Virus record (IMG/VR): IMGVR_UViG_3300045136_000267
Length of the DNA: 64,000 nt
Origin: a virus
Strand: one strand, 5' to 3'
Positions 4,085-39,830 of the stretch are shown in pieces. Numbering within the stretch: the stretch's first letter is position 1; the number at the start of each line of letters is the position of its first letter. The translations under genes and the position numbers were made by a program. The notes beneath the pieces were generated by a model, which saw nothing but the letters and a program-made list of their open reading frames with translations, was not told where the DNA came from and did no database searches.

Positions 4085-7000
4085 ATGGCAGATTACCTAC
4101 TCATCGGAGACGGTCTTGGAAGACTATATCTCGAATCCGATGATCCAACAAGTCCTTCTTTTCTGCTGCTAGACGTTGTTGGTGTATCTGCCTCAGATTC
4201 TACCACTACCACACCAGGGGATTATAGCTTTACCTGGCCAGACAGAGCACCTTACATCATAGTAAGATGTACTGGCGCAGGGGCTGGTTGCGTTAGAGTT
4301 TTTGATAATTCCGTTAATAACTATTTACTCGTTAGAGGTGGTGGGGGTGGTGGTTATTCTAGAGTTAAACTAACTAGACCAATAGAAAAAGATGTAGAGA
4401 AATTTCATGTAGGAAATAAAGGACTTGCAGAATCTAGTTCTAATACTGAATCTCAAGGAGAGGCATCCTGGTTTGGTAGATATAACAATAGCATTAAAAT
4501 AATAGGGAATGGTGCTTATAGAGATCAAGGAGGAACAGGAGCTTGTACTTCTGTATCAGATGGTTCTACTATCTTAAGCTATTTTCTTGCTACCGGAGGT
4601 AATGGATGTACTGCAGATTATACTTACGATCCGAGCCTTGGGTTAATAATAAATAAATGTGGATGCCCTGGTCATCCCGGATCAGATTCAGGTGATGGAG
4701 CTGATGGTAATTGCGGGTACAACGATGTCAATAACCCTTGCGATGGAATCCCTCAGGATCCTGGTTCTGGAGGTGCCCGTTGTAGTTCCTTTAATGATGG
4801 AAAAGATGGTTCAGTAAGGATAATAGTAGAGGCACCAGGTAGCGTTGGGATTAAATTTACAGTACAACCTACTGATACACCAGTAAATATAGTAATAGCT
4901 CCTCCTATAGAAGTATCTTCTTATTTTATTAACTACAATGTATTAGGAGGCAGTGAATCTCAAGTAACTATTAGCAAAGATTCAAGTTCTCCGGGAGGTA
5001 CGTTATCTGGTACTCTAACTAAAAATGTTGTAGAAGATCATTTATTTGTTTTTGACGATATCAAGATAAATCAAGCTGGTACTGGGTATAAGCTTGTAGC
5101 TACTTCATACCCAAATAATTATCAGGATACCAGTAGCTCTTTTGATATATTTGTTAATTTAGTCAACTTAAACTCATCTTTCTTTAATACTCCTGACTAC
5201 TCTCCTTCCATAGTAAATGCGATTGGATCTAACTTATCAGTTTTCACTGGGACTAGAACTAGTGAAAGTCGTAGTTCAGTATTGCCTAATTTAAAGACTG
5301 AAGACAGTACAGCAGGAACCAAGGCTTCTTCTGTAGAATTTAAAAATAATATCTATACTTCTATTTCTTATTCAGAATCTACCCTAGCTTCTCTAAAAAC
5401 TAATAACTACTTTAATTTAAATGACATTTGTACTGACACTGTTTCTTCTATAGTTAGCCCTAAAGTATCGCTAAGAACAGTAGATAGTACTACTAATCCT
5501 GTCTCATCTTTAGCAACAGCAAATAATTTACTATCTACAACTGATATCTCTGTTGAGTATCAGAATAATACTCTAACTACTTCTTCTCTATTAACTTCTA
5601 CGGAAGTATCTACTAGATATTATGCTAATACTTTAGCTGCTTCTTCTTTCTTAACATGTAGTTATTTTACAGCTAATTATGATGTAACTATTCCAGCAGC
5701 TAAATTATATTTACTTACTCAAGATAATAGTATTCATTACCACGGAGGAGAAGCTACTACACAAGTATTTATACAGGCTTTTTGGGATGACTTCTCACAG
5801 AATTTTATCAAATCAAATCTAGATAATAAATTAAGCCTGAACTTACCTGAAGACTCTATATATAGAAGTACATATAAATTAGCTTTCATAAGTAATATAG
5901 ATATAGATTCCCAAGTTAATAGTTTTGAATCTGCTTTCCTTGGGTCAAAAACAACTACGAGCAGTAATGAAATAAATAATTACTTTGATTCGAATTCGTT
6001 GGGATTCAAATCCACTTTTGAATTAAAGCTATATAATGCCGATTATCATCAAGCGCTACTTTCTGCTAGATCTGCAATAAATAGTTATACACTTAATTAT
6101 GAATATGGTTCTGCTTTCTTAAGTCTCTTTCTAGAGACAGCTTCTGATATTAGAGATAATAGTGCTTTCTATGAAGCTGCTACACTAACAAATAAATTAT
6201 ATCTAAATACAATTACAGTCGAAACGGAATCAGATAGTTTACTTCTGGGAGGAAAATTATATCTATCTGTACAAGATAGTATTTCTACTTATAGTCAGCA
6301 TATTCCATCTGTAATCAATTATATCTATGTAAATGATTATCAAATTGAATATTCAAGTCTTTTTTCTGTTATAACTTTATTATTAGAAACTAACTTTCTA
6401 AACAAAGACTTCTCTACAAATCTTGTTTCTTTCTATTCAGTAATTAATTCTATACATAGAGTATCTCAATATATAAAATCTGCTATCTCTTCTTCACTTA
6501 TCCTTAATACAAATGAAAATAGTCCCAGATTTGCTAGTAGCAAACTAATAATATTAGCTACTGCTTTCTTAAATGACTCAGTTACTATCTCTGATAGTTT
6601 CCATTCTGGTATTTACCTTCTTTGTATATCTTCATTTGTTAATGAGACTAGTGAAAGAAATAATGGTTATTTATCTCAATCTATATCTAGCTCTTACCAA
6701 GAAGCCACAGACTTAGCTTCTGCTTTATCTATAAGTTTATCTACTGAAGCGGCATCTGTAGATAGTTTCTCTACAGGCTATCTAGCTAGCCAATTATCTT
6801 TCAAAACATACTTAACGTCTGAAGATACTGATATCAGTACTGAGACGAATAAATTATCTACATTATCTTATATTAATCTCATTTTAGTTAATACTGAATC
6901 TTCACTGCACTTCTTATTAATACAAGGAGAATTAATAACATGGTCTACAGATCATCAGACAAATTATGAATCATCAACTTTAGATAATATCATGTCTCTA

Positions 7001-9001
7001 TTCACAGAAGAGACTCAAACTACTGCAGAACTTCCTGATGCAGTAGTAGCTCTTTCACTGAATGCTGATTTCTCTAAGTCTTCTTTCCATGAAGCTCCAG
7101 ATCCTGTTTGTGGAGTAATTGCTTATTCTGATTTCACTCCAACTAATATATCTGCACAGTTTGTACTATTAGCCTTTGATTATTCAATGGCTATAGACTT
7201 CTTGCTGATAGAAGACGGCAAGAGCAGATTGAAGATTGGTTCCGGTGAATTAGATGATTTAGGGTATTTAAGCCTAGATCCTTATATGTTCTCTGATGGT
7301 GATTATATTCAATTAGGTCCATCCTCTTGGTTATATACCATTCCTGACAGATTACCTTACATTACTGCAGAAGTTCTAGGAGGTGGTGCTGGTGCTACAT
7401 CCAAGTCTGGTTATTTCTTACTCTCTGTAGGAGGTGGAGGTGGTGGTTATGCTAGATCTATTTTAACCAGAGATATTGAATTTGATACTATATTTCTGAA
7501 AGCTGGCGGTAAAGGTCTTCCTGCAGAATTCTTTGGGGAAACCATAAGATTAGATTCTGAAGGTGAACCTTCTTATATAACTAAGCATCCAAACTCTACT
7601 GATTATTTCTTGTATGCCAGTGGAGGAAGAAATAGATTTGGAGGTTCTGGTTTTGTCACTAGAGGAACCAATGCTTTTGTTGCTTTAGGAGGCAACGGAT
7701 GTGAAGGAGAGGTATTTTACGATTCTATCGTACTCTATGGCTGCGGTGGAAAAGCTGGATCTGCAGCTGGGGATGGGGAGGATGGAGAATGTGTAGATTC
7801 TAGTACTTTTTGCCCTACACCACAAGATTATGGTAATGGTGGCAATGCCAATCCTTTCTGGCAGCAGCATGGTAATGACGGTTTCGTAAGAATTAGCTGG
7901 GATAATCCATATATATTCAGAAAGATTGCTTTCATTCAGCACCCTGGTACTTCTTATGCAACAGAAGCCATTAAACCGTATTCTGATATAGTTCTTGTCA
8001 ATTCTTTCTATAATTATGAATATCCTCAGTCAATTGGTTTAGTTACAATTAGCATAGAACATGATCCTAATGGAGGATTAGCTACTTTAAGCGGTACTCT
8101 AAGTAATACACCAAGAGAAGGATCATGGATATTTGAAGATCTATCTATAGATCTAAGTGGTAAAGGGTACAAATTAAGAGCAACAGCAGATCTTACTTAT
8201 AACTTAATTAATTCTAATTACGATATTAGCGATCCTTTTGATATCCTAATCTTTGTAGATCTAGAATGTTCTTTCAGTTCAAATAACTATACCAATAGGA
8301 ATTTTGTATCTGCGAGAACTCCAGTAGAAGCTAACTACTCTAGTAACAACTATACAGCACCAGAAGCCATAGTTGGAGTTATTGCTAATTCCTTAGATAA
8401 TAGAATCTCTGTCGGTTATAATGTTATGAAAATATCATCTAGACTAAGAACAACAATTCAAAATAATGAATTTATAAATAATGCTAAAATAGATTTCAAG
8501 ACAGGATTATTTGTAACTGATAGTAGTACCAACCAAGAAGCTGAACGTATTTCTTCCTATTCTAATATTCCTACTGCTTATGATTCCAGTATTTCTACTA
8601 CTTATGGTAAACTGACATTTAAAACAGGTCTTTTCCTCCCAGAAGTAAATTTAGAATTTGATAATAGAATATTCTTAGGAACTAAGAGTGCTGCTTTTCT
8701 TCAAGAACAAGAGATATCTAGAGATTCTTTCAAACTAGATTTCACAGTACAGTTAGTCACTAGAGACTTTAATCCATTAGACTATCAGTCTCTAGATACT
8801 TTCTATGTAAGCATATCTCCTTATCCAGTAGAGACTTACGCTGCAGATTTATTAGATTTATTCTATGATGTAACAATTAATCTTGATACGCAATATGTTA
8901 ATGTCAGTCCATTATCTATAGAATTCTTGGAAAGAAATAAAGATTTTATAGTTAGGTTCAATCTACGCCCGATCTTAGATATAAGATGGAGATTTATATA
9001 G
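4085..9001 (+). CDS. Large virion/tail protein with two Gly-rich modules
   Basis: 1638 aa. Internal duplication of the module D(Y/F)LLI-G/E-DG...PDR-x-PYI...GAGA...GGGGGGY...TLSGTL...GYKL-x-AT, separated by a long Ser/Thr-rich spacer. Confidence 0.6.
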   Translation: MADYLLIGDGLGRLYLESDDPTSPSFLLLDVVGVSASDSTTTTPGDYSFTWPDRAPYIIVRCTGAGAGCVRVFDNSVNNYLLVRGGGGGGYSRVKLTRPIEKDVEKFHVGNKGLAESSSNTESQGEASWFGRYNNSIKIIGNGAYRDQGGTGACTSVSDGSTILSYFLATGGNGCTADYTYDPSLGLIINKCGCPGHPGSDSGDGADGNCGYNDVNNPCDGIPQDPGSGGARCSSFNDGKDGSVRIIVEAPGSVGIKFTVQPTDTPVNIVIAPPIEVSSYFINYNVLGGSESQVTISKDSSSPGGTLSGTLTKNVVEDHLFVFDDIKINQAGTGYKLVATSYPNNYQDTSSSFDIFVNLVNLNSSFFNTPDYSPSIVNAIGSNLSVFTGTRTSESRSSVLPNLKTEDSTAGTKASSVEFKNNIYTSISYSESTLASLKTNNYFNLNDICTDTVSSIVSPKVSLRTVDSTTNPVSSLATANNLLSTTDISVEYQNNTLTTSSLLTSTEVSTRYYANTLAASSFLTCSYFTANYDVTIPAAKLYLLTQDNSIHYHGGEATTQVFIQAFWDDFSQNFIKSNLDNKLSLNLPEDSIYRSTYKLAFISNIDIDSQVNSFESAFLGSKTTTSSNEINNYFDSNSLGFKSTFELKLYNADYHQALLSARSAINSYTLNYEYGSAFLSLFLETASDIRDNSAFYEAATLTNKLYLNTITVETESDSLLLGGKLYLSVQDSISTYSQHIPSVINYIYVNDYQIEYSSLFSVITLLLETNFLNKDFSTNLVSFYSVINSIHRVSQYIKSAISSSLILNTNENSPRFASSKLIILATAFLNDSVTISDSFHSGIYLLCISSFVNETSERNNGYLSQSISSSYQEATDLASALSISLSTEAASVDSFSTGYLASQLSFKTYLTSEDTDISTETNKLSTLSYINLILVNTESSLHFLLIQGELITWSTDHQTNYESSTLDNIMSLFTEETQTTAELPDAVVALSLNADFSKSSFHEAPDPVCGVIAYSDFTPTNISAQFVLLAFDYSMAIDFLLIEDGKSRLKIGSGELDDLGYLSLDPYMFSDGDYIQLGPSSWLYTIPDRLPYITAEVLGGGAGATSKSGYFLLSVGGGGGGYARSILTRDIEFDTIFLKAGGKGLPAEFFGETIRLDSEGEPSYITKHPNSTDYFLYASGGRNRFGGSGFVTRGTNAFVALGGNGCEGEVFYDSIVLYGCGGKAGSAAGDGEDGECVDSSTFCPTPQDYGNGGNANPFWQQHGNDGFVRISWDNPYIFRKIAFIQHPGTSYATEAIKPYSDIVLVNSFYNYEYPQSIGLVTISIEHDPNGGLATLSGTLSNTPREGSWIFEDLSIDLSGKGYKLRATADLTYNLINSNYDISDPFDILIFVDLECSFSSNNYTNRNFVSARTPVEANYSSNNYTAPEAIVGVIANSLDNRISVGYNVMKISSRLRTTIQNNEFINNAKIDFKTGLFVTDSSTNQEAERISSYSNIPTAYDSSISTTYGKLTFKTGLFLPEVNLEFDNRIFLGTKSAAFLQEQEISRDSFKLDFTVQLVTRDFNPLDYQSLDTFYVSISPYPVETYAADLLDLFYDVTINLDTQYVNVSPLSIEFLERNKDFIVRFNLRPILDIRWRFI

Positions 9002-15637: not shown

Positions 15638-15647
15638 TATCAACAAG

Positions 15648-15669
15648 CCGCATATCTTCGGATATGCGG
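15648..15669 (+). other. C(UUCG)G hairpin directly upstream of tRNA-Val
   Basis: CCGCATATC-TTCG-GATATGCGG, a 9-bp perfect stem with no U tract. Confidence 0.6.
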
Positions 15670-15673
15670 TAAC

Positions 15674-16507: not shown

Positions 16508-16518
16508 AGTCCTTTCGC

Positions 16519-16554
16519 GTTGCAATGCCTGCGAAGAGGCTTGGTTTCTTCGAC
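16519..16554 (+). CRISPR. Solitary 36-bp CRISPR repeat
   Basis: GTTGCAATGCCTGCGAAGAGGCTTGGTTTCTTCGAC; near-identical to the repeats at 20265 and 20326. Confidence 0.8.
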
Positions 16555-16603: not shown

Positions 16604-17314
16604 ATGAGGTACCTATCTCTCCTTATTGGCCTGCTTTCTATTTGTATTACCATTACTTCTCAAGCACAAAATCTCAAAACACTTAATGACCCAAATGTTG
16701 AAGTAAGGATTTTGTGTGATGGTGTACAAATTACTAATACGAGTCCTGCAGAAGTCAGTGTATTTGATTGGACTGTAGTAATTGGACAGAGAACTGATGA
16801 TCATTATCCTCAGCCGTTGTGTTGTGCTTATATTTTAGATGGTAAATACGATCCAGTTATCACTTACACTTCATTTGGAACTCCAAAGCAAGGTCTTCGC
16901 GAGAACGTTAGAGGCGGTGGTTTCTATTTTCATTGCACAATCCCACCACGTAATTCTGTCGTACTAAGGGCTCTAGTACTTGGTTTCGGTAATGCTCACG
17001 CTATTACAAATATTCCGAAAAACGCAGTTTATAAACGAGTTAATAGAAATCTTGGTAGAAAACATGCTTTTGGAATCTATGCTTGCATGTCTACAATTCA
17101 AACTGCAATAGATAAGGGAGTCACTAAAGAAGAAGATTTGAAATCGACCAAAGAGATTGGTATCCTGCTATTAGCTTTTTACGAAGAAAAATTTCCAGAA
17201 TATGCGAGAATACGAGCTGTCATTTCAGAAGACTTTTATAAACAGCTAAGAGATCATTTCAGTGATATGCAACGCACAGGAGAACAACTATATAAAACAG
17301 TCTTTTGCGAGTAA
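16604..17314 (+). CDS. Exported protein with signal peptide; probable distant paralog of 20483..21229
   Basis: GGAGG SD; MRYLSLLIGLLSICITITSQA leader; DGVQITNTS versus DGILKIINNS in the paralog. Confidence 0.7.
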   Translation: MRYLSLLIGLLSICITITSQAQNLKTLNDPNVEVRILCDGVQITNTSPAEVSVFDWTVVIGQRTDDHYPQPLCCAYILDGKYDPVITYTSFGTPKQGLRENVRGGGFYFHCTIPPRNSVVLRALVLGFGNAHAITNIPKNAVYKRVNRNLGRKHAFGIYACMSTIQTAIDKGVTKEEDLKSTKEIGILLLAFYEEKFPEYARIRAVISEDFYKQLRDHFSDMQRTGEQLYKTVFCE

Positions 17315-17542
17315 TTAACTCTAATAAGATTTGCAAGATTAACAAGTCCAAGGCGAATTTGGACGGTCAATTATCCTTCCACAGTTGCAAAAATATAGTC
17401 TATGACACTGTCGTGTACCACAAACGCCGGTGGTAATGTTGAGCTACCGGAAACGCTATGGGCGGGCGGTCCGCCCATGTAATCACCAGCCAGAGTGCTG
17501 GCGGCGAGCCGGCTTGGCCGAGACGACCGGAGGAGTGTTGCT

Positions 17543-18307
17543 ATGTCTGCTATTGTTAAGGTTACCGTTCAGCGTACCAAGGATTGGGTGCGCGCACGGC
17601 GATTGGAAACCGGGGAAAACGTCCCGGAAACAATCGAAGTTGAGGTCCTAGCAGATCAGTTACCTCGCGAAGTCCGGGAGCTACTGATCGAAGCCGGGGG
17701 CGGATCATACCCCGACGAATTCGCTGGCGATATCCGGCAGGACTACCTATGGATGTATCGGTCCGACTTGCGGTACGGGCGTGTACCGATCATCGTAGAT
17801 GCCGACCAACCGACGCCGGAGTCAATAGCCGCGGCGATTCTGACTGCCGACAAGGAACGGCGTCGGATGAAGATGGAAGTTGAGGAAAAGATTCGTCAGC
17901 GTGAAGAACGAGAGCGTGCACTTGCCGAAGAATGGGCGCGGCTGCCCCTGGAGCAGCGGGCCAGTGCGGCTGGCGTGTGCGTTGCCCGCGACCCCGAGAC
18001 GGGTACCATGAGCGCCTATGGGGTGCAATTGTACGATATCTCGGCGCTGAAGAAGTACGTACCAGAGGCGTTGGACGAGGCGGTCCTGGAGGTGGAACGC
18101 CTTCGCGAAATCGAGCGTGGCAGAGAGGCGATCAAGCATCGCGCTCTGCTGGCTGAATTACTCGGCTTAGTACCAGAAGACGCGCTGCGGCATGCCGTTA
18201 AACGTGCCGCCATTGATGGTATCGCCGGGAAACCGGCGTCAATTGAAGAAGTGCGGAAACAAGTCCATCAAGCCTGCCAGGCTGGCGGCGTCCGCATAAG
18301 TATTTAA
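17543..18307 (+). CDS. Hypothetical GC-rich coiled-coil protein upstream of the Cas12-like gene
   Basis: GGAGGAG SD before the ATG at 17543; E/R/K-rich central helix. Confidence 0.7.
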   Translation: MSAIVKVTVQRTKDWVRARRLETGENVPETIEVEVLADQLPREVRELLIEAGGGSYPDEFAGDIRQDYLWMYRSDLRYGRVPIIVDADQPTPESIAAAILTADKERRRMKMEVEEKIRQREERERALAEEWARLPLEQRASAAGVCVARDPETGTMSAYGVQLYDISALKKYVPEALDEAVLEVERLREIERGREAIKHRALLAELLGLVPEDALRHAVKRAAIDGIAGKPASIEEVRKQVHQACQAGGVRISI

Positions 18308-18328
18308 CAAACGTTGCGTTTATTACAG

Positions 18329-18360
18329 GCGGCCGGTGTGTACTCAAGCACCGGCCGCCG
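18329..18360 (+). terminator. GC-rich hairpin after 17543..18307
   Basis: GGCGGCCGGTG...CACCGGCCGCC inverted repeat; weak U tract. Confidence 0.45.
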
Positions 18361-18480
18361 TTGTATCGGAAATCAGCGCTTCCTACTTCGCCCTGCAGTA
18401 AGAGATGCTCTAACGAATGTTGTCTATTCTAGTGGAACTGAGGGTTCTTTATCTCTAGGAATGGGAATAGGAGGACTATC

Positions 18481-20142
18481 ACGCCATTCGGCAGAATAGC
18501 CGGCCCAACTATTGTCTATAAATATGGGGCGAAAAAACCAACTACAAACGCAGAAGCGATTTTGGACCAGTTGCGCAAAGCACATCAGTACCGCAACAAG
18601 CTTGTCGAAATAGAGCTTCAACGACGCAAACTCGTCGAAGAAGCTGTCAAGAATATCGAAAGTGATGTCCGCCATTTGACGGACAAGTTAGAACAGCTTG
18701 AACTGGACATTGACTATACGGTTAGAAAAATCAGCAACCACAAACAGAAGAATCAGACTCGAACTATCCCTGTCGAATTGAAAGAACGTCTCAAATCATT
18801 GAAAACTCAGTACAGAGAAGCGCTGCGGCGTATGAAAAAGGCCAAGAAAGCCGCGTACGCTCGTCCAGAAACGCAGGAGGCATTGAATCGAATTGAAGGA
18901 AAAGTGAGGGCTGAACACAAAAAAGCCCGTAATTTGTGTGGGCTCTATTGGGGTACTTACTGCCACGTAGAGCAGATCATCCCATGTATCAGAAAAGGAC
19001 CGCCGCCGAAATTCCGCCGTTTCGACGGCAGCGGTGTATTAGCGGTCCAGCTTCAAAAGGGAGAAAACATTGCACGGTTGGAGAGCGGCGAAGACCGTCG
19101 CATCCGCATTGAGGGCTGCGGCAAGCGACGCATATTATGGCTGCGCATCGGATCGGACGAGAACCGCGATCCGATCTGGGCGACGATTCCATTTACTTAT
19201 CATCGTGAAATTCCAAGCGATGCGAAAATCAAGTGGGTGAAAGTCAAAGCCCAACGCATTGCATGCCAAACTGAGTGGGAGGTGCTCTTTACGCTGGAAC
19301 GGAGTTCCGGCTGGAAAAAGCCCGACCTAGCTCAGGATGGAGCAGTTGCCATCGACATCGGTTGGCGCAATTTCGATGATCGCATTCGCGTAGCATACTG
19401 GATTGGTAGTGACGGACGCGAAGGCGAAATTGCACTGCCCCATAACATGGTTGGCAAGGCGCTTGAACAAGTTGAGCATTTACGATCATTGCGAGACAAG
19501 AATTTTAACGAGATTAAGCAGCAACTGCTTGACGCTATCGGTGCGCTCCAGATTCCGGAGTGGCTAAAGGAGGTTACGAAAACGCTGCATCAGTGGCGTA
19601 GTCAAGGAAGACTGGCGGCGCTGGCCATTCGATGGCGGCAACAGCGATTCGATGGTGACAATGATATATTTGCTCTACTAGAAACGTGGCGGGTCCGCGA
19701 CAAGCACCTTTACGAATGGGAGGCACATCTCCGCGTGAAGGCTATTCGTTGCCGCAACGATTATTTTGCCAACGTCGTAGCCGATTTGTCTCGTCGTTAC
19801 AAGACAGCGGTTGTTGAGGATTTTGACTTGCGGAACGTTACACAGGTCGATCCGATACAAACGGAACAAATTGGCGATGGACGTCAGCTCTATCGTGCAC
19901 ACATCGCCGCGGCCGGTGGCTTACGGCAGATGATTAAGAATCGCTTTGCCGAAACGCAGATCGTGTCTGCCGTGCTCACAACGCAGACCTGCACGGAGTG
20001 CGGCGAAATCATGAACTTCGACGCGGCCGAGAGCGTATTTAGCAAATGTTCACATTGTGGCCATGCGTTTGATCAAGACCGCGCAGCGGCGATTAACCTG
20101 ATGCGACGATACGAGGAAAGGCTAGTTGCTGCGAACAGCTAG
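18481..20142 (+). CDS. cas12m: Cas12m (type V-M/V-U1)-like CRISPR effector, ~553 aa
   Basis: N-terminal IVYKYG...QLRKAHQYRNKLVEIE, long coiled coil, GLYWGTY, FRRFDGSGVLAVQLQ, HREIPSDA. RuvC-I VAIDIGWR, QWRSQGRLAAL, RuvC-II VVEDFD, Zn finger CTEC...CSHC, RuvC-III DQDRAAAINL. Adjacent 36-bp repeats. Confidence 0.82.
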   Translation, partial: TPFGRIAGPTIVYKYGAKKPTTNAEAILDQLRKAHQYRNKLVEIELQRRKLVEEAVKNIESDVRHLTDKLEQLELDIDYTVRKISNHKQKNQTRTIPVELKERLKSLKTQYREALRRMKKAKKAAYARPETQEALNRIEGKVRAEHKKARNLCGLYWGTYCHVEQIIPCIRKGPPPKFRRFDGSGVLAVQLQKGENIARLESGEDRRIRIEGCGKRRILWLRIGSDENRDPIWATIPFTYHREIPSDAKIKWVKVKAQRIACQTEWEVLFTLERSSGWKKPDLAQDGAVAIDIGWRNFDDRIRVAYWIGSDGREGEIALPHNMVGKALEQVEHLRSLRDKNFNEIKQQLLDAIGALQIPEWLKEVTKTLHQWRSQGRLAALAIRWRQQRFDGDNDIFALLETWRVRDKHLYEWEAHLRVKAIRCRNDYFANVVADLSRRYKTAVVEDFDLRNVTQVDPIQTEQIGDGRQLYRAHIAAAGGLRQMIKNRFAETQIVSAVLTTQTCTECGEIMNFDAAESVFSKCSHCGHAFDQDRAAAINLMRRYEERLVAANS

Positions 20143-20264
20143 GTACGATAATATAGATATTAATCGCTCGTAATATACAAGTTGAAACAACGTAATAGAT
20201 GTCACAACGACTGCTACCAAAAAGAGGTCCAACATGTTATAAAGAACATAGTTAGATGAACGCT

Positions 20265-20361
20265 CGTGCAATGCCTGCGAAGAGGCTTTATTTCTTCGAC
20301 AGTGAAATGGATGATCAGAAGGGAACGTGTAATGCCTACGGAGAGGCTTCATTTCTTCGAC
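20265..20361 (+). CRISPR. Mini CRISPR array: two 36-bp repeats and one 25-bp spacer
   Basis: CGTGCAATGCCTGCGAAGAGGCTTTATTTCTTCGAC (20265-20300), spacer AGTGAAATGGATGATCAGAAGGGAA, CGTGTAATGCCTACGGAGAGGCTTCATTTCTTCGAC (20326-20361). Starts 122 bp after the effector stop codon. Confidence 0.85.
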
Positions 20362-20375
20362 GAGGCGTCAGTACT

Positions 20376-20448
20376 GGGCCGGTAGCTCAGTGGTGAGAGC
20401 GGGCGCCTTATAAGCGTCAGGTCGCAGGTTCAATTCCTGCCCGGCCTA
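20376..20448 (+). tRNA. tRNA-Ile(TAT)
   Basis: Acceptor GGGCCGG/CCGGCCT; anticodon arm GGCGC-CTTATAA-GCGTC; GGTTCAATTCC; no CCA. Confidence 0.92.
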
Positions 20449-20482
20449 CTGTTTCATCCCCTTCCCCATATAGGAGGACAAT

Positions 20483-21229
20483 ATGACGAAGGTACGAAAC
20501 ATTGCTCTGTTCATTTTGATTTTCTCTCTTGGATTCGTAGGTTGTAAGTCTAAGGACGTTGTAGGACAGAAATATATTGATCCCTATGACATGGCTATTG
20601 ATTATGTATACGAAGATGGAATTCTTAAAATTATCAATAATTCAAACAAACCTGTAGAGCTTGCTACACCAACGGTGTTTTTGGGATTCCCCTCTAAAGA
20701 GGGTGAAAATATGTTTTTCCTCCTTCTTAAGGAGGGAACGCACTCATTGACCCTTTATGATTTTGGTGGCGAGGACTACGTTGAGGATATTTATCCTTCA
20801 AACGATAATTCCAAAGTTAAAGAGATCTTGGTTGTTGACTTGAAGCCCAAGGAAGTTAGGGAATATCCCGTAATTGCCGTTGCTATTCCTACCGAGGGAT
20901 TTAGTTATCTGGTTGGAGACGGTACTTATGCTGTCCTTCCAGTAATCGGACACCACGAAAAGCGTTGGATCACCTTTATTGCTCTGTCATTCCTGGCAGA
21001 AGTATTGGATAAAGACAACTCTGATCTATACAAGAAAGCATTGGCTCTTGCTTTGCGATTCATTTGGGTAGGACCAAATGATGACACTGAATTGAAAAGT
21101 ATTGAAAAAGACTTGTTGCAAGAAGGCTGGTCAGAAGATGTTATCTCAGTTGCCTTTTCTGTCTTTGGAATGGCAAGGGAGAAAGCCAGGAAACATTTGA
21201 AGGATATTACGAAGATTAAAAGAATCTGA
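20483..21229 (+). CDS. Putative lipoprotein
   Basis: AGGAGG SD; signal peptide ending in lipobox-like FVGC. Confidence 0.75.
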   Translation: MTKVRNIALFILIFSLGFVGCKSKDVVGQKYIDPYDMAIDYVYEDGILKIINNSNKPVELATPTVFLGFPSKEGENMFFLLLKEGTHSLTLYDFGGEDYVEDIYPSNDNSKVKEILVVDLKPKEVREYPVIAVAIPTEGFSYLVGDGTYAVLPVIGHHEKRWITFIALSFLAEVLDKDNSDLYKKALALALRFIWVGPNDDTELKSIEKDLLQEGWSEDVISVAFSVFGMAREKARKHLKDITKIKRI

Positions 21230-30353: not shown

Positions 30354-30510
30354 GCTAAAAAATTGCCGGGGACCACACGATCTCGCACGGTAGGAACCCG
30401 CACGTAGCAGCTCCTGCATCAAGTGTAAGGCAAAGTCTAGGTGACTATAGACTTGCCTTGGCAGGAGCTGCATCTTTAAACCCGAAATTCCGGTAAGTCA
30501 GCAAGTTGCC

Positions 30511-30735
30511 ATGAAAATAACCCCTCGCAATAGTAATTTTGGCTCCTTTTTGCATGATGAGTCAGGGAACACTGTATTCCATATAGATGCGCGTATGGTC
30601 TGTCTTGTTGGTAAAGATAATATGAGGGAACCGACTACCTGGTGGTTTTATCAAGATAAATACAAAAACAGCAGCAATTATTCGTATGGAAATATTGTTT
30701 TTGTAGAAGAGTTTATTCGGGTAACTATAACATAG
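30511..30735 (+). CDS. Duplicate of 26251..26484
   Basis: Near-identical DNA, including the GTTGCC just before the start. Confidence 0.7.
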   Translation: MKITPRNSNFGSFLHDESGNTVFHIDARMVCLVGKDNMREPTTWWFYQDKYKNSSNYSYGNIVFVEEFIRVTIT

Positions 30736-30861
30736 TATCAAATTAGACTAAAAATAGTGTTATATGCACTAAAAAACACAGTATAAGGGCTAAAAATACG
30801 CGATTTCGCCCCTATTGAATCTAAAAATAGGCCTAAATATGGAATATTTAGGCTAAAATAA

Positions 30862-30876
30862 GGCATAAATAAGTGG
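30862..30876 (+). promoter_or_regulatory. Phage promoter-like motif (also at 31505, 32623, 33484, 36306, 36737, 39071, 41359, 41448)
   Basis: GGCATAAATAAGTGG; recurs upstream of genes and is usually followed by a GC-rich hairpin. Confidence 0.7.
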
Positions 30877-30926
30877 AAGGTCTGCATTGTGCAGATCGGA
30901 ATGTGTCCACTTCCCGAGAGGGACAA

Positions 30927-31337
30927 ATGAGTCACGCTCAAAAGATTTGGCAGTCGCTTTGTATGCATCGTGGCAAGGTTGTGATGGTAGTGCTTCTCAT
31001 GACCACCCTTTTCGCTGCCTTCTACATTTTGAACAGCAATTCCGGCCTTGATAGGAAAGCACAGGCAATTGCGGTTCAGTTGTCAAAACGAATTGGTGTA
31101 CCATACAACGAGGCTTATTTGATTGCCAAGAGTACGTTGAAGGAAGCTGAGAAATTGCCTGAACGCGGCAGCTTCTTCGAGAATATTTGGTACGGGTCTC
31201 CACGGGCCCGTTATTTGGAAAACACTATTGAGACGAGATTGAGGCGAGCCGGCATGTCCGGATTTTGGTTGGGTAGTGAAGTCCGTACTTCGGTTCGCAG
31301 CGGCCTCCGTGAGGCCGCCGAGCCGCAGAAGAAGTAG
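30927..31337 (+). CDS. Membrane-anchored hypothetical protein
   Basis: Hydrophobic stretch VVMVVLLMTTLFAAFYIL; lies between the promoter motif and a terminator. Confidence 0.65.
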   Translation: MSHAQKIWQSLCMHRGKVVMVVLLMTTLFAAFYILNSNSGLDRKAQAIAVQLSKRIGVPYNEAYLIAKSTLKEAEKLPERGSFFENIWYGSPRARYLENTIETRLRRAGMSGFWLGSEVRTSVRSGLREAAEPQKK

Positions 31338-31345
31338 TTGTCCTG

Positions 31346-31390
31346 GGGCCTGCTGACCTACTCAGTAGGCCTCTTTTTTAGCTAAAAAAT
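31346..31390 (+). terminator. Hairpin + TTTTTTAGCT terminator-like motif (similar at 32968, 34560, 36205, 36620, 37032-37105, 48005)
   Basis: GGCCTGCTGA...TCAGTAGGCC-TCTTTTTTAGCTAAAAAA. Confidence 0.75.
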
Positions 31391-31584
31391 AAATGCACGA
31401 TATTTAATCTCGTGCACGTATTTATACGTGCGTTTTATTGCTTAGTTTAAGGTGCTTTTTTGCATTAATTGCACGTTCGTCAATGGACTTAGCTATAGAA
31501 TTAAGGCATAAATAATTGGTGGAAATTAGTTGTTTTCCACCGGCCATTCCCCGGGCCATTGACGGGGAACAGGAAAGCAAGAAT

Positions 31585-31908
31585 ATGACTAGCACTAACA
31601 AGGTTGCAGGCTCAAGGATCGTTGTGTTTGAGGCAGAACTTGTGGAAATCTTGAAACAGAAGTCGCTGGCAGCCGCTGCCGGTTATTTGCATTCGCAAAA
31701 CCTTCGCTACAACGGTAGCGCCTACCGCTACCGTTGCTTGTCTTCTGGCGATTTGTTCGACTTGCGCCGGCTGCCCGACGGGCGGCTAGTGCTGCGGAAA
31801 TTGACTCCGCTCGGTGAGTTCCAGCATCCTCGGGCCGCTGATGCATTCGTGTACTCGGCGCGTGAAAACGCGCCGAAAGGAAAAGAATACTTCTGGGTCA
31901 AGATCTGA
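31585..31908 (+). CDS. Hypothetical protein (GC-rich)
   Basis: Downstream of promoter motif at 31505; AGGA SD. Confidence 0.65.
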   Translation: MTSTNKVAGSRIVVFEAELVEILKQKSLAAAAGYLHSQNLRYNGSAYRYRCLSSGDLFDLRRLPDGRLVLRKLTPLGEFQHPRAADAFVYSARENAPKGKEYFWVKI

Positions 31909-31990
31909 CCCAGAGAGCGCGGCTTGCCCAAGGCCGCGCTATATAAATGAAAACTTGGGCTTTCTTTTTTACCTAAAGAGGAGCCCAGAT

Positions 31991-32629
31991 ATGTTACTAG
32001 CTCCACAGATATTTGAAGAAGAATTATCTTATCTCAAATGTGTGGATATTTGTTCTGACAAATATGTTGTCACTAAATCTGATTTAGTTACGTTTGTTTC
32101 TTCTATTGGTGAGATGGAATTATTTGACGTGATTGGTAGGGAAGAATTTGATTCCAATAGAATTAAGAAAGAATTAGAGCATGTGGAAGCCACTACAATT
32201 GCTGATCTAGTTCTAGATTATTTGAATTATGACTTTGATTCATATTTGCATGAATATGCGAAAGAACTTGGAAAAGAATTTGATGACTGCGTTGTTACTT
32301 GTTCTGAGGAAACAGAATTTGCTGCCTCCGATATTTTAGATACTTGTAACACGCTACTTAGCGTAGAAGTTGCTATCAAACAATATTTTGATGGTGTAAA
32401 TAAAGAATTATTTGGATTGTTTTGTGACAAACGTCGTCATTTTGATACCTTACTTCAGATGCAAGATAATTTGAATGTATTAGCTCGTTATGTAAATTTG
32501 AATGAACTTAAAAATTGGCGTAAGCTTTGGAAGCCAAGGGTGAAGATTGATATCCCTTGGTGGCTTGATGGAACGCTGGAATTTCTGTGCAAGGATGCAC
32601 AGAGAAAAGTTAAGAAAAAGAGTGAATAA
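31991..32629 (+). CDS. Hypothetical acidic protein
   Basis: GAGGAG SD before the ATG at 31991. Confidence 0.65.
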   Translation: MLLAPQIFEEELSYLKCVDICSDKYVVTKSDLVTFVSSIGEMELFDVIGREEFDSNRIKKELEHVEATTIADLVLDYLNYDFDSYLHEYAKELGKEFDDCVVTCSEETEFAASDILDTCNTLLSVEVAIKQYFDGVNKELFGLFCDKRRHFDTLLQMQDNLNVLARYVNLNELKNWRKLWKPRVKIDIPWWLDGTLEFLCKDAQRKVKKKSE

Positions 32630-32660
32630 ATAATTGGGTAGTTCCACCCAAGGAGGTGCT

Positions 32661-32960
32661 ATGAAACGCTTTCCAGGTATTTGTTTCGTCTTCATTTTGT
32701 TGATCCTGTCTGCTGGTAATTTGACGGTGTACGCTTCGAATAATGAATTGAACCAACCTCTTGAAAAGCAAGAGGTTATTAATATTTGCAAAGTGCTACT
32801 TGATGGGTATATGACTTTTATGATTGAGAAGAATAATTGTGAGCGGCTTGCCGCTGAAGCACTTTATAAGCATTTGATCGAGCCTGCTAACGTTCTGTTG
32901 AATCATTTGTTTCCAAAGTATGCGAGGAAAATGGAGTACAGATTTGTGCAGGATAAGTGA
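32661..32960 (+). CDS. Exported hypothetical protein
   Basis: AGGAGG SD; signal peptide MKRFPGICFVFILLILSAGNLTVYA. Confidence 0.7.
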   Translation: MKRFPGICFVFILLILSAGNLTVYASNNELNQPLEKQEVINICKVLLDGYMTFMIEKNNCERLAAEALYKHLIEPANVLLNHLFPKYARKMEYRFVQDK

Positions 32961-33024
32961 ATTAATAGCCCCAGGAAATTACTCCTGGGGCTTTATTTTA
33001 GCTAAAACTGTTCAAGGAAGAACT

Positions 33025-33504
33025 ATGATTGATTCTGATTTCGAAATTATAGAACGAAATCTGAATAGTAGATTTATTTGTCGTAGTTCTTCTGTATATG
33101 GAGATTTAGCAAAAGTAATTTCTGTAGAGACTATACATAAATTGCATAACGGAGAACCTGTAACTATTTATGTTTGTCTCACCAGATACTTTTATCCTTG
33201 CATATTTATCTCTGATTCGAGAAAGGCTAAAGATTATTTATTAGATAAGAAAGCTAAATTAGAACTGACTATAGAGGAAAATGAATACTTTTCACAACGT
33301 GATGTATGCGTTTTTAATTCATTTATCATTTCTCTAAGCCCGCTTCATATGTCAGTTGATGATTTGATAGCCCATATTGGAGATATAATCAGCAATATTA
33401 CTGATTGTATAATTTATGTAATTAATAATAGAACTAAAGATACATTAGACTGGAGACTGGATTGTGTAACAAATGGAAAATATGGCATAAATAAGTGGAC
33501 GTGA
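33025..33504 (+). CDS. Hypothetical protein
   Basis: AAGGA SD; AT-rich ORF. Confidence 0.6.
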   Translation: MIDSDFEIIERNLNSRFICRSSSVYGDLAKVISVETIHKLHNGEPVTIYVCLTRYFYPCIFISDSRKAKDYLLDKKAKLELTIEENEYFSQRDVCVFNSFIISLSPLHMSVDDLIAHIGDIISNITDCIIYVINNRTKDTLDWRLDCVTNGKYGINKWT

Positions 33505-33820
33505 GTCCACCCTCCTCCGGGAGGGTTTTAGGTTGGGTGCCAGAAACCCTGTAGCTGCGAGCACAGCTACATGGCGGAGGCTAACCGACGTGAGGGAGTC
33601 GGGGGTACATGCACAGCCCGGTATTCGACATGCTCGGGTCGAATACAAGGGATGCATGTGCCACGGGTTCGAGACCCAAAACCCCTCTTTTTAGACCTGC
33701 AGCGAATTGCCCTTTCTAGGGATGTCCCCGCGCTGCAGGTCGTTAACCTATCAAGGGAATCTCTGCCTTTTTTAGATAAAAAGGTAGGGATTGGGACGTC
33801 CCAGCCTGGCCGCTAGGCTT
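33497..33820 (+). ncRNA. Candidate structured ncRNA or long 5' leader
   Basis: Follows the promoter motif at 33484 and contains many nested perfect stems (see findings). Confidence 0.5.
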
Positions 33821-33838
33821 TAGTGGCAGGAGCTAGAT

Positions 33839-34531
33839 ATGAAGAACCTAAAAAACATTTGCACGCGAGTTGAAGCTCGGGAGTATTTGGAATCGCTTGA
33901 TTTGCCTGAGTCTGTAATTGAGGCGCTCTTGAAGGAGACCGCACTTGATCGACACAATTGGAGGACGAGTCGGGCACTTGAAGCAGCGAAAAATTGGGTC
34001 GTTAGTTGTTGGGGGATGGAGGAACATAAAATTGGGGAGTATGTTGTGGCGGCGCAGGTTAGCGCCGTCTTGCTTGCTGATTGCTTTGGTATTGGAGGTC
34101 ATTTGGGCGTTTCGGGTGCCGGCACTAAAAGACACCCGGCTTTGGTAGGCCTTGGAAAAGGCCGGAAGAATTGTAGTGATGGTCCAGCTTGGTCGGCGGC
34201 AATTCGCGCCGCCGTCGATAATTGTCGTGGATATTTTGCCCCGTCATATATGGATGGTATTTGCTTGGCTTATTATGTTGATTATTGGAATATGTTGACC
34301 CTGCTTAATTCGAAACTTATTCCATTTGAATGGCAATTGACGATTGCCCGTGAGGGGTTGAGGAGGTCCTTTGGGCTTGATCCTTGGTTCCCGGACTTGT
34401 TGGACTTTGTTAGGGCTGACGAGAACACTTGCACGGGTTGGGCTCAATTGGTTGACTACTTGACTGAGGAATTGGAAAAAGCAAGGCAACAAGCTGAAGA
34501 GGAGCAGCCTGAGGAGGCTGCTTCGACTTAA
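33839..34531 (+). CDS. Hypothetical protein
   Basis: AGGAG SD; followed by TTTTTTTAGCT. Confidence 0.7.
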   Translation: MKNLKNICTRVEAREYLESLDLPESVIEALLKETALDRHNWRTSRALEAAKNWVVSCWGMEEHKIGEYVVAAQVSAVLLADCFGIGGHLGVSGAGTKRHPALVGLGKGRKNCSDGPAWSAAIRAAVDNCRGYFAPSYMDGICLAYYVDYWNMLTLLNSKLIPFEWQLTIAREGLRRSFGLDPWFPDLLDFVRADENTCTGWAQLVDYLTEELEKARQQAEEEQPEEAAST

Positions 34532-34598
34532 TTGCTACGTATTATTTGTTTGGCTACTTGTTTTTTTAGCTCAAATATTTCGGAAAGGAGGGTTATTT

Positions 34599-35669
34599 AT
34601 GAAAATCTCTAGCATGCATCTCACTAATGTTGGTCCAATTAAGGATGCTCAAGTTAATTTTGGCGATTTAACGATATTATTAGGACCTAATGATCTAGGT
34701 AAAAGCATTTTTTTACAGCTATTTAGGCTAGCACTTGATTATGGATACATTAATGATGAATTAACAAAGTATGGAATAGATTGGAATGGTTCTTTATCTC
34801 TGTTTCTTGAATCGTATCTAGGAACTGGATTACAGAGCGTTTGGCAAAATGATAGTAGTATTAAACTAAATGGTAAGCCAATAAATTTGAAGCAAATGGT
34901 ACAAAAGCCAAGCAAAGCAATAGAACCCACTGTATTTTATATTCCCGCCCAGCGGCTTTTGATGTTCACCCACAACTGGATTAAACCTTTCACAGAATTT
35001 AGATATATGGATCCGTTTGCCATTAAAGATTTTAGCGAAACGCTCCGTAGGGCAGTAGATCATAGAATGATGAAGAAGAGAAATTATTTGAAGCCTTGGC
35101 TTTTGAAGGCAATTAGTAAGGATATTTTTGGAAATTTAAATTTAGATATTGCTATATATTCTTTTAGGAAAAGCATTGTGCTTGGAGATAGTAAGAAGGA
35201 TACTGTCATTCCTATTGATAATTGCTCTATAGGACAAAGAGCTTTTGTTCCTCTGCTTCTAGGAATTCAATGGTTATTGCATGAGGCAGCTGATAAGAAA
35301 GGTAATTCAATTAAGTGGGTAATTATTGAAGAACCTGAATTAGGTTTACAATTATGCACTCATTCTTCTCTCTTTTCTTCTATCTTTCATACATTATTTC
35401 TATTGATTACTGGGCTGCTTCAAAAGGGCTATAACGTTTGCATTAGTACACATTCTGAGCAGGTATTTGCTTTTGCTTGGTTAGCTCGTTACTTGAAGTC
35501 TTGCAGCAAATATCCGTCAGGATTGATTACCTGGCTTCAACCAAATAATTCAACGGAATTAGAGGATTCAGTTAAATATTTATGTAAAAGAAATGTTATG
35601 GTCTATGAATTTGACAATAGCGGGCTGGCTGCGGATATTTCACAAGAATATTGTCATAGTATGATGTAA
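34599..35669 (+). CDS. ABC-type (AAA_15/AAA_21-like) ATPase
   Basis: Walker A-like GPNDLGKS, YIPAQR, signature-like SIGQR, Walker B IIEEPE, H-loop ISTHS. Confidence 0.8.
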   Translation: MKISSMHLTNVGPIKDAQVNFGDLTILLGPNDLGKSIFLQLFRLALDYGYINDELTKYGIDWNGSLSLFLESYLGTGLQSVWQNDSSIKLNGKPINLKQMVQKPSKAIEPTVFYIPAQRLLMFTHNWIKPFTEFRYMDPFAIKDFSETLRRAVDHRMMKKRNYLKPWLLKAISKDIFGNLNLDIAIYSFRKSIVLGDSKKDTVIPIDNCSIGQRAFVPLLLGIQWLLHEAADKKGNSIKWVIIEEPELGLQLCTHSSLFSSIFHTLFLLITGLLQKGYNVCISTHSEQVFAFAWLARYLKSCSKYPSGLITWLQPNNSTELEDSVKYLCKRNVMVYEFDNSGLAADISQEYCHSMM

Positions 35670-35700
35670 AACTGATTTTTTAGCATGGAGGTTTTGAGAA

Positions 35701-36012
35701 GTGAGCATTTATTTTCCGGTCGGCAAACCTAATATCATTAGATGGTATTCCCCTGACGGGAAGCACTCGGCGGTGCTACATGTGACGAGCACCACGAATC
35801 CGAGGGCTAATGATACCTTGACATTTTACTTCCGGGATTACAATGGTAACCCAGCGACAGCGCTTGATGGATTAGTTCTATCCTTAGATGGGGTCACCTC
35901 TGTCATTGGTACAGAGGTGCGGGCATACGTAGACAGGAATATATTAGCTACTGTATTTAGCCCTAAGATGACTTTGAAGGTAGGTAATGATATTTGGATT
36001 ATGAATAAATGA
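35701..36012 (+). CDS. Hypothetical protein
   Basis: GGAGG SD before GTG start. Confidence 0.6.
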   Translation: MSIYFPVGKPNIIRWYSPDGKHSAVLHVTSTTNPRANDTLTFYFRDYNGNPATALDGLVLSLDGVTSVIGTEVRAYVDRNILATVFSPKMTLKVGNDIWIMNK

Positions 36013-36373
36013 GATGAAGATAGTAGCAGGGGCCAGATGATCCCCTGACGGGGACAGGGGACACACGATTCAGCTGCATATAGTTTAGGCTTGATCGTAA
36101 TTCGATAATAAAATAAGATTATATCTAGCCCCCTCCTTGCGCCCCCGGTCGCGCCCTTGTGGCGTGGCCGGGGGTTTTTTATTTTCGCAGCTTCAAGCAT
36201 TTGCTTCTTTTTTAGCTCAATGAGAAAGAAGAAGAGGGGCTACTTGTTTTCGGGTGCCCGCATTCGGAAAGGCTTCTGGGGGCCAGACGAACGCGCTGCT
36301 AAGCTGGAATAAATAATTGGGAGGCCCCTGCTGTGGGGGCCGATTTGAGTCCACGTACATAAGGAGCATAAGC

Positions 36374-36559
36374 ATGTACGTGGTTATCTTCTCGTATTCT
36401 GAACGGGGGCCGGTGCGGCGGCTCCCGTTCAAGGCTAAGAGCCGGGCTATTCGGGCGGCCCGGCTCCTTGAGAAGGCAGGCCTTCGGGCTTGCCTCATTA
36501 GCCCGTATCCCCTGCGGACTTCCCCGCAGGGGAACAAGGAAATGAAGCCCCGGGTTTGA
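36374..36559 (+). CDS. Small basic protein (GC-rich)
   Basis: Promoter motif at 36306, AAGGAG SD, terminator downstream. Confidence 0.6.
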   Translation: MYVVIFSYSERGPVRRLPFKAKSRAIRAARLLEKAGLRACLISPYPLRTSPQGNKEMKPRV

Positions 36560-36801
36560 TCCTGGGGCGGCTCCTGGGAGGTCGGTCTCTACTCCCAGGA
36601 GTAAAAAGCATAGAGACCTTCTTTTTTAGCTAAAAAACAATGATTTTTTAGTTAATAATAAAAGCTAATTAGTTAGTAACAAAGCTAGTTTTTTTATAAG
36701 CAAGCTATAGCTGTATGGGCAAGGTAGGAAGTAGCAGGCATAAGTAATTGGAAGGCCTCCGCCGTGGAGGCCGAATTCGTTCCGCGTCCGGGAGGGGAAA
36801 A

Positions 36802-37014
36802 ATGTACGCGGTGCTAATATACCATACGAAGGGCAGCGACCTGACAGGCCACGAGGTCGAGCGGGTGAACTTCACCACCCTCTCGGCGGCCGAGGAGGCC
36901 GCCGAGAAGGCTCAGCACGAGGGCAAGGATGCCATCGTGCTGCACATCATCCGCCAGCCCTACCGATTTACGGTAGGGCCCGACGGGATCATCCGGGACA
37001 TTGAGTGGTGCTAG
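36802..37014 (+). CDS. Small hypothetical protein (GC-rich)
   Basis: Promoter motif at 36737, GGAGG SD, hairpin terminator at 37032-37078. Confidence 0.65.
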   Translation: MYAVLIYHTKGSDLTGHEVERVNFTTLSAAEEAAEKAQHEGKDAIVLHIIRQPYRFTVGPDGIIRDIEWC

Positions 37015-37348
37015 CCGCTCGGTGTCCCACTAGCCCCAGCCGCGCCAGGACGGCGTTGCTGGGGCTTTCTTTTTTAGCACTAATCCCCTTACTTCTTTTT
37101 TAGCTAAAGAAAACAATATTTGCTTTTTAATTCATTACATTAACAACTGTTGTCATTATATAGCATACTTCCTTTCTTTATCGCTCTTTCATTTATAGCT
37201 ACCTCTCGCTCATTCTCTCTCTATCTTTACTGCTTTTATTCTATACTCGCATTCTATTAAAGGTAAGTAATAGTAACACATAATCGCCTATTGTATTATT
37301 GTTAATGTATATAGAGATGTATATTTATATTGTCTATGGATTATTCAA

Positions 37349-37850
37349 TTGCTTATTTATATATATCACTCTTCTAGAGTAGATCTTATATTTAAGCTAC
37401 TATGAATGACAAGCATGGATAAGCACTCCTTCGCTCTTCTATATATATAGCTCGCTTGTTTGTTATACATTGCTTATTTCTATGTTACTCTTTGAGAGTA
37501 AATATATCAGTCATTATTACTGAAATGATAAACAGAGATAAGCACTCCTTCGCTCTTCTACGTATACATATTCAGCTATAGCTATCGTCTTAATGTACTT
37601 AATATGCTTATCTATATATTACTCTTCGAGAGTAAATATGATATTCAATCTATTATGAATGATGGATATGGATAAGCATACACATACTCTCTCTTATATA
37701 TCTATATCTCCTTTTTAATATACTTAATTTGCTTATTCCTATGTTACTCTTTGAGAGTAAACATATCATTCATATTTCTGGAATGACAAACAAGTTTCTG
37801 GAATGACAAACAAGGATAAGTACTCACTCTCTTCTATATATTCTCTCTCT
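37349..37850. repeat. Four ~125-bp imperfect tandem units with internal palindromes
   Basis: TGCTTAT...(T)ACTCTTYNAGAGTA...GATAAGYA at 37350, 37471, 37605 and 37730. Confidence 0.8.
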
Positions 37851-38420: not shown

Positions 38421-38540
38421 CTATTACTATTGTAAGCAGATTACTATCGTAAACTAATTACTATCGTAAACTATTATTGACGTAAACTAATTACTGACGT
38501 AAGCGATATTACTATCGTATACTATCGTATACTATTGCAT
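38421..38540. repeat. ~17-bp iteron-like tandem repeats
   Basis: TTACTATCGTAAACTAA and variants, about 6-7 copies. Confidence 0.8.
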
Positions 38541-38658
38541 TAGCGATAAGTAGCAGCCTTTGAGTAGCTGCTTAAGTTATCTTAGGTCGGCTTAAGAGCG
38601 CCGCCAAAATTTTCACCTCCTGCATATGAAGACACCCCGCACGGGGGTAGAAGGGGGC

Positions 38659-39804: not shown

Positions 39805-39830
39805 TTAAAGTTACTCCGGACAGGTCGAAG

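Follow-up and report, generated by a model that had tools for sequence, protein, structure and literature searches.

The window, by which we mean the whole 64,000-nucleotide stretch of IMG/VR virus record IMGVR_UViG_3300045136_000267 that was analysed, carries a gene for a Cas12m effector, directly behind which are placed a two-repeat CRISPR array and a gene for tRNA-Ile, while further copies of the repeat stand alone elsewhere (Table 1). No capsid or terminase gene was recognised in the window using PHROGs and Pfam, where only HNH endonuclease, ATPase and intein matches were found, and a blastn search against GenBank phages matched the window only at the tRNA. The label 'phage' is used here because of the tRNAs, the gene layout, the IMG/VR relatives and the replication genes of the relatives. 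Among the other genes, that of an 889-aa protein (55231-57900) encodes an intein splicing domain (Pfam PF14890, 37.4 bits) and presents a weak PHROG match to the large subunit of anaerobic ribonucleotide reductase.

Table 1 Features of the cas12m locus and lone copies of its repeat in the window
Feature	Position	Strand	Remarks
lone repeat copy	16515-16554	+	exact 40-nt indel; 50 nt before the ATG at 16605
cas12m (type V-M effector)	18481-20142	+	553 codons; phmmer, Pfam
CRISPR leader	20143-20264	+	highly conserved in L006 and L007 (alignment)
CRISPR repeat 1	20265-20300	+	36 nt
sole true spacer	20301-20325	+	25 nt; diverged homologue of L007 spacer 4
CRISPR repeat 2	20326-20361	+	36 nt; five substitutions; same sequence variant as L007 repeat 5
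predicted 14-nt remnant of the tRNA-Ile leader, not a spacer	20362-20375	+	homology to the leader in relatives
tRNA-Ile	20376-20449	+	anticodon TAT, tRNA-Ile(UAU); ARAGORN; Rfam RF00005, 72.8 bits
lone repeat copy	39831-39866	-	26 nt before the ATG at 39804 of a 140-aa ORF

The cas12m gene and its array

The window Cas12m aligns over its full length (query residues 4-532) with PDB entry 23vw_A, the title of which is 'CRISPR-associated DNA-binding protein Cas12m' (phmmer E=3.2e-68), and also matches the Cas12m2 structures 8hio/8hhl (1.1e-21) and the GoCas12m-type structure 8pm4 (1.5e-19). The TNB zinc-finger domain is present (Pfam PF07282, 33.4 bits with a cut-off of 26.3), and the segments IDIGW, VVEDF and DQD align with the RuvC I, II and III positions of 23vw_A; by this alignment, the RuvC would be of the D-E-D type. 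Orthologues with 86-93% identity are found on hot-spring and microbial-mat metagenome contigs, and proteins of this hot-spring-mat family are 553-556 aa long. With dN/dS values of 0.07-0.11 against five orthologues (0.10 against L007), the gene is still under strong purifying selection. At its start, the ATG of five orthologues is ACG in the window, at 18481 and 6 nt behind an AGGAGG (aligned starts; region 18469-18483), and the second in-frame ATG of most relatives is ATA, with the rest of the ORF intact. The G+C content of the gene is about 51%, as compared to about 37% for the element (window 18000-20000 versus the rest), and the spacers in the regular arrays of L004, L009 and L010 are, by eye, mostly more GC-rich than the element. 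This contrast suggests that the system was acquired recently from GC-rich organisms or elements and that it has its targets in such organisms or elements.

The two window repeats are 89% identical and are separated by a spacer of only 25 nt. Eight related metagenome contigs have this repeat as well, in arrays that range from 2 to about 13 copies. Behind orthologous cas12m genes we counted 10 copies in L004/L005, about 13 in L009, 8 in L007/L008 and 6 each in L006 and L010, while the partial contigs L030 and L031 contain arrays of at least 4-6 copies. In three IMG/VR sequences (L001-L003), whose Cas12m homologues are at only 39% identity, the array repeat is nearly the same and has a compensatory change in its 3' stem. 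In the window, the 19-nt core of the repeat occurs four times, where 0.04 occurrences are expected. When 45 repeat copies were considered, a stem-plus-pseudoknot model, which is the scaffold architecture described for Cas12m2 (PMC10442227), left 96.3% of cells paired, as compared to 35-61% in slid controls, and pairs 11-20 and 16-32 show compensatory changes. Both window repeats retain every pair of the stem and the pseudoknot, with one pair in repeat 2 becoming G-U. As the relatives carry full arrays of this repeat behind orthologous cas12m genes and as every structural pair is kept, we consider the window repeats to be genuine CRISPR repeats of a Cas12-type system, in agreement with an earlier note on this DNA. 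No anti-repeat of at least 13 nt was found in 17300-20480 (within 3 kb); a single 12-nt stretch within cas12m is complementary to the repeat, but it was attributed to chance and rejected as a tracrRNA. No adaptation genes adjoin the window cas12m and array.

Across the contigs compared, the array locus is generally unstable. In L011, which is from the same sample as L004, cas12m is missing between the genes for 286-aa and 248-aa proteins, and an orphan two-repeat array with a 37-nt spacer is found 65 nt before tRNA-Ile (region 7150-7450). L010 has its last repeat fused into an ORF of 188 aa. The heptamer CTTCGAC, a copy of the end of the repeat itself, follows the repeat at three separate places, these being L006 5967-5973, L007 4748-4754 and, on the minus strand, window 39824-39830.

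Spacer lengths are irregular in the group formed by the window, L006 and L007 (15-50 nt) and regular in L004 and L009 (mostly 33-39 nt). The L006 spacers measure 37, 50, 29, 15 and 15 nt, the two 15-nt spacers being consecutive in an otherwise normal array (5865-5930). The internal spacer of the window was correctly described as short in the earlier note; as its L007 homologue is likewise 25 nt long, this length is inherited. Searches with 38 spacers from seven arrays yielded no match above chance to the window or to the relatives' loci compared, and no protospacer from which a PAM could be read was found. Two candidate targets were considered and rejected. The first 20 nt of the window spacer match one conserved gene in two related Thermodesulfobacteriota MAGs, but the site has a TAT flank, the last 5 nt are mismatched and about one such match is expected by chance; the same 20 nt have no match in IMG/VR. 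The first 19 nt of L010 spacer 1 (L010 3838-3873) have 15 matches in unrelated GC-rich genomes, none of which extend beyond 27 of the 36 positions, and again no match in IMG/VR. In the X9 array variant (contig behind window 20300), the first spacer overlaps the reverse complement of these 19 nt, and two lineages would thus hold spacers from both strands of one target.

The fourteen nucleotides before tRNA-Ile

Between repeat 2 and tRNA-Ile lie the 14 nt GAGGCGTCAGTACT. The earlier note gave the repeats, these 14 nt and the start of the tRNA at 20376 at the correct coordinates, as confirmed by the sequence, ARAGORN and Rfam, and was also right that no terminator is visible between repeat 2 and the tRNA: a simple consensus scan of window 20000-20600 revealed no terminator-like or sigma-70-like sites. 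It went on to propose that the 14 nt serve as a guide whose end is set by RNase P. In relatives without a repeat nearby, however, homologous nucleotides form part of the tRNA leader. The identical 14-mer stands immediately before tRNA-Ile in L007, 711 nt past the last repeat and beyond a 195-aa ORF, and the 14-mer with 1-2 changes is found at the same position in L006, L010, L011 and L029-L031. A contig from another study (X11) contains the exact 14-mer and the tRNA, preceded by the other hairpin arm and not by a repeat. A hairpin of 14-17 bp, which stops two bases short of tRNA-Ile (fold z-scores of -8.6, -7.1, -4.8 and -2.7), has the 14-mer as its 3' arm in the relatives, and in L029 and L030 this hairpin shows a compensatory change (ACTAAC with GTTAGT). 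The window leader has lost the 5' arm, the loop and a promoter-like motif, and has retained the final 14 nt. By this homology, the 14 nt appear to be what a deletion left of the leader hairpin of tRNA-Ile itself, rather than an acquired spacer.

The distance between the last repeat and tRNA-Ile points in the same direction. The earlier note had itself named variation of this distance among relatives as counting against its claim, and the distance is not conserved, being 14 nt in the window as compared to 65-711 nt elsewhere: 65 nt in L011, 77 nt in L006, 666 nt in L010, about 690 nt in each of L030 and L031, and 711 nt in L007, while in L004/L005 the tRNA is absent behind the array. Among the eight relatives compared, the 14-nt spacing is thus found in the window only. 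In the 64-kb window and the relatives' loci compared, the 14-mer has no target besides the tRNA-Ile leader. The leader motif GTCAGTACT is not enriched in the window, and the other tRNAs have different leaders. Of the four tRNA genes, two have a hairpin directly before them, namely tRNA-Ile (in the relatives) and tRNA-Val (in the window), the latter with a strong 10-bp hairpin with a TTCG loop that ends 3 nt upstream of the tRNA (15647-15670; fold z-score of -4.6). No hairpin is found directly before tRNA-Arg and tRNA-Lys.

The motif that is missing from the window leader, CATAAATAnnTGG, is found 13 times in the window, where 2.5 +/- 1.6 occurrences are expected (a five-fold excess), with 12 of the 13 on the plus strand (for example at 30864, 31507, 33486 and 41450). 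Within 30500-42000, for which the ORFs were listed, the sites lie near ORF boundaries. In the relatives, the motif lies within the hairpin of the tRNA-Ile leader, in its loop and 3' arm, and in L007 (5842-5854) and L010 (4824-4836) it immediately precedes a 13-nt tRNA-Ile leader. We thus regard CATAAATAnnTGG as a candidate element-specific promoter. A sigma-70 scan and a search for the motif found no promoter-like site in the 233 nt from the cas12m stop to the tRNA in the window; the sigma-70 and terminator scan gave nothing in L006 and one weak site (9/12) in L007. As neither the motif nor a sigma-70 site stands between cas12m and the tRNA, tRNA-Ile is presumably transcribed through the array. 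RNase P cleaves at the 5' ends of tRNAs, so that an upstream RNA with repeat 2 and 14 nt at its 3' end would be expected. Co-transcription of the array and tRNA-Ile, followed by a cut at 20375/20376 that leaves the repeat with 14 nt, is thus a reasonable inference.

Taken together, it is highly probable that the window contains the stump of a decayed Cas12m array, in which a deletion fused repeat 2 to the tRNA-Ile leader and from which a repeat-plus-14-nt RNA arises, if at all, as a likely by-product. The locus would be what remains of a type V-M array in a large phage-like element of hot-spring microbial mats. From an L007-like ancestor, the array would have shrunk to two repeats and one inherited 25-nt spacer, and a deletion of about 0.1-0.9 kb, in this lineage only, would have brought the final 14 nt of the tRNA-Ile leader directly up against the end of repeat 2, removing the CATAAATAnnTGG motif as well as the loop and 5' arm of the leader hairpin. 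The tRNA would now depend on transcripts that run on from cas12m and the array, and the upstream fragment would be released by RNase P. The sequences at the break points, where the 3-nt microhomology GAG is shared by the sequence after L007 repeat 5 and by the tRNA leader, would fit a simple deletion. Against a random deletion, it should be noted that the junction lies exactly at an intact repeat 3' end and that the unfused allele has TTG just 5' of the break. A random deletion predicts neither of these, although the GAG microhomology can mimic a break at the repeat end.

The fate of the repeat-plus-14-nt RNA should be considered separately. As cas12m is under purifying selection and as repeat 2 keeps all of its pairs, the Cas12m system may still be active and could load this RNA. 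The earlier note had argued that short guides allow binding without cutting. This argument does not apply here and adds nothing, as the characterised Cas12m enzymes bind DNA and never cut it (PMC11013384). Cas12m2 requires a full heteroduplex of 17 bp, with 12 bp representing only an intermediate state (PMC10442227), and the optimal guide of PmCas12m is 17 nt (bioRxiv 10.64898/2026.03.26.714355). Given that the characterised Cas12m enzymes do not cut, that these guide lengths exceed 14 nt and that the start ATG and the second ATG of cas12m are changed to ACG and ATA, the fragment most probably arises as a by-product and does not work as a guide. The two 15-nt spacers of L006, on the other hand, count against the by-product view, as they indicate that very short spacers persist elsewhere in the family.

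Junctions, lone repeats and other explanations

A deletion is not the only event that could join a repeat to genome sequence, and the other junctions in the family bear on this point. At four junctions of an intact repeat end with ordinary genome sequence, the trinucleotide directly 5' of the break in the unfused allele is of the form YTN. It is TTG at the tRNA-Ile leader (unfused in L007 and X11), CTT at the site of the lone repeat 16515-16554 (L007 and L011), TTA at the L010 ORF fusion (L007, L030 and L031) and TTA at the L011/L006 trailer (L007 and L010). With a background YTN frequency of 0.13-0.17, four of four would be expected by chance with a probability of about 3e-4 to 8e-4, a value that should be read with the small sample in mind and with the fact that this definition was chosen after the four junctions had been viewed. 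YTN is the PAM of PmCas12m (5'-YTN; bioRxiv 10.64898/2026.03.26.714355) and may not be that of the window Cas12m.

This excess, together with the identity of YTN as the PmCas12m PAM, is what favours reading the window junction as a scar of recombination between a spacer and its protospacer, that is, a capture that erased the PAM, deleted the DNA between the two and left the leader and the tRNA start in the position of a spacer. On this reading, the ancestral spacer would have been a match to the tRNA-Ile leader in relatives, and hence to that of the element itself. We consider such an origin unlikely. There are only four junctions, the PAM was defined post hoc and borrowed from PmCas12m, and, as every array has a last repeat, breaks at repeat ends are partly a matter of how cases were found. 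Moreover, the window junction is equally explained by the GAG microhomology, the solitary 40-nt insertions are impossible by a single crossover, a fifth site (39831-39866) is ambiguous for YTN, and no spacer in any array matches these elements. A broader proposal, which we hold to be quite improbable, is that the junctions are non-random because the repeat replaces the PAM by recombination or a homing-like conversion, such that the element's own allele is immune while the guide targets the allele of co-infecting relatives. If this were true, the guide target here would be the promoter and leader of the relatives' tRNA-Ile, and a CRISPR effector would have reused a TnpB-like 'empty-site' logic in phage-phage conflict. 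Although small, this hint of PAM replacement would, if borne out, bear on the ways in which mobile elements turn DNA-binding Cas12m against each other.

Two copies of the repeat stand alone in the window. The copy at 16515-16554 lies behind the promoter-like motif CATAAATAnnTGG at 16494, and the ATG that follows it starts a 236-aa protein with a signal-peptide-like N-terminus. The window and L010 have this copy and L007 and L011 lack it, while its flanks pair the window with L007 and L010 with L011, thus disagreeing with the presence of the repeat. The pattern suggests repeated precise gain or loss, or short-tract recombination. The copy at 39831-39866 lies behind a hairpin and a TTGACT...TATTAT pair; the repeat is present at this site in the window and L034, whereas L032 and L033 contain only a TTCTTC remnant. 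Further lone or paired repeats are found before genes in L004, L009 and L010. For the sequences that follow the lone repeats, no second matching site was found in the 64-kb window or the relatives' loci compared, nor was any promoter complementarity found.

To our knowledge, no Cas12m acts on mRNA or tRNA precursors. Repeat 2 and the lone repeats could, even so, be handles by which Cas12m binds the element's own transcripts for their processing, stabilisation or control, rather than for DNA targeting. Lone repeats in the same orientation stand 50 and 26 nt before start codons, with others in L004, L009 and L010, and Cas12m enzymes process their own pre-crRNA by cutting within or just upstream of the repeat (PMC11013384; PMC10442227). 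However, both lone-repeat sites show filled and empty alleles in close relatives and the tRNA junction is unique to the window, so that we give this role a slim chance.

The claim of the earlier note, namely that the locus is a functional natural tRNA-gRNA cassette in which Cas12m uses an RNase P-defined 14-nt guide for binding or regulation, would, if true, represent a new route to making a CRISPR guide. The geometry is right, with neither a terminator nor a promoter-like motif between repeat and tRNA; repeat 2 is structurally intact, cas12m is under purifying selection, and TTG followed by the exact 14-mer between the motif and tRNA-Ile, as in L007-type relatives, would make a sensible site for blocking transcription. 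Nonetheless, the 14-mer is the leader of the tRNA itself, the spacing is found in the window only among the eight relatives, 14 nt fall below both the 17-nt optimum and the 17-bp heteroduplex (10.64898/2026.03.26.714355; PMC10442227), the 64-kb window and the relatives' loci compared contain no other target of the 14-mer, and the ATG of cas12m has become ACG. A working cassette is thus very improbable and, as comparison with the relatives shows the junction to be a deletion scar, there is no reason to maintain the claim.

Mis-assembly of CRISPR arrays is common. That the junction arose in this way, from collapsed or chimeric assembly of a metagenome region rich in repeats, as might be suspected given that array variants coexist in the same samples, deserves almost no credence, as separately assembled Logan contigs from two runs (X1 record 1, 10.6 kb, and X5 record 18, 2.1 kb) span it from repeat 1 through the tRNA with 0 and 2 differences, respectively, and as the end of the repeat and the 14-mer have no stretch in common that is long enough for them to be joined falsely. 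The two runs are from one sample, possibly the very one from which the window was assembled, and so do not offer biologically independent support; the junction is, nonetheless, not an artefact of the original assembly alone. The junction is a real observation with an ordinary biology, namely that of a deletion scar in a decaying mini-array, while the PAM-replacement pattern and the mobile-looking lone repeats are worth following.

Comparison with known systems

By every sequence-level criterion that we considered, the window locus is a type V-M system. It resembles the characterised members (MmCas12m/Cas12m2, GoCas12m, MsCas12m and PmCas12m) in the full-length homology of the effector and its TNB zinc finger, in the adjacent array on the same strand, in a repeat of about 36 nt that ends in GAC and has the stem and pseudoknot, and in having neither an anti-repeat of at least 13 nt within 3 kb nor adjoining adaptation genes. 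Unlike these systems, it is found on a phage-like element rather than on a bacterial chromosome, its RuvC is of the D-E-D type by alignment, its array contains one real spacer, its effector gene starts with ACG, and lone repeats are scattered in the genome.

With engineered polycistronic tRNA-gRNA cassettes (PMC6297969), the locus shares a tRNA right behind a guide-like RNA, the 3' end of which RNase P would set. Unlike in these cassettes, the supposed 14-nt guide is a tRNA leader, is not conserved, is below the Cas12m optimum and is flanked by a tRNA on one side only. The window also resembles the viral solitary repeat units, RNA anti-CRISPRs and crRNA-like regulators (PMC10651486; PMC10120712) in having stand-alone repeats and mini-arrays, some of which precede genes. 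It differs from them in that its repeats match the element's own Cas12m, in that no promoter complementarity was found and in that filled and empty alleles are seen.

A further comparison is with the Cas12m of myxophage MV-1, which a preprint claims as the first phage Cas12m (bioRxiv 10.64898/2026.09.14.751636). Both are compact Cas12m proteins encoded beside an array in a viral genome that lacks cas1, cas2 and cas4, and in both there is no tracrRNA, the RuvC is D-E-D and no protospacers were found. The MV-1 protein is 610 aa long, as compared to 553-556 aa in the window family of hot-spring mats, and, in contrast to MV-1, the window family has arrays in decay, a relative that has lost cas12m (L011) and lone repeats at dispersed sites. 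The window system thus belongs to the recently described class of virus-borne Cas12m, of which it presents a second, well-sampled family, in which array decay, loss of the effector and shed lone repeats can be followed.
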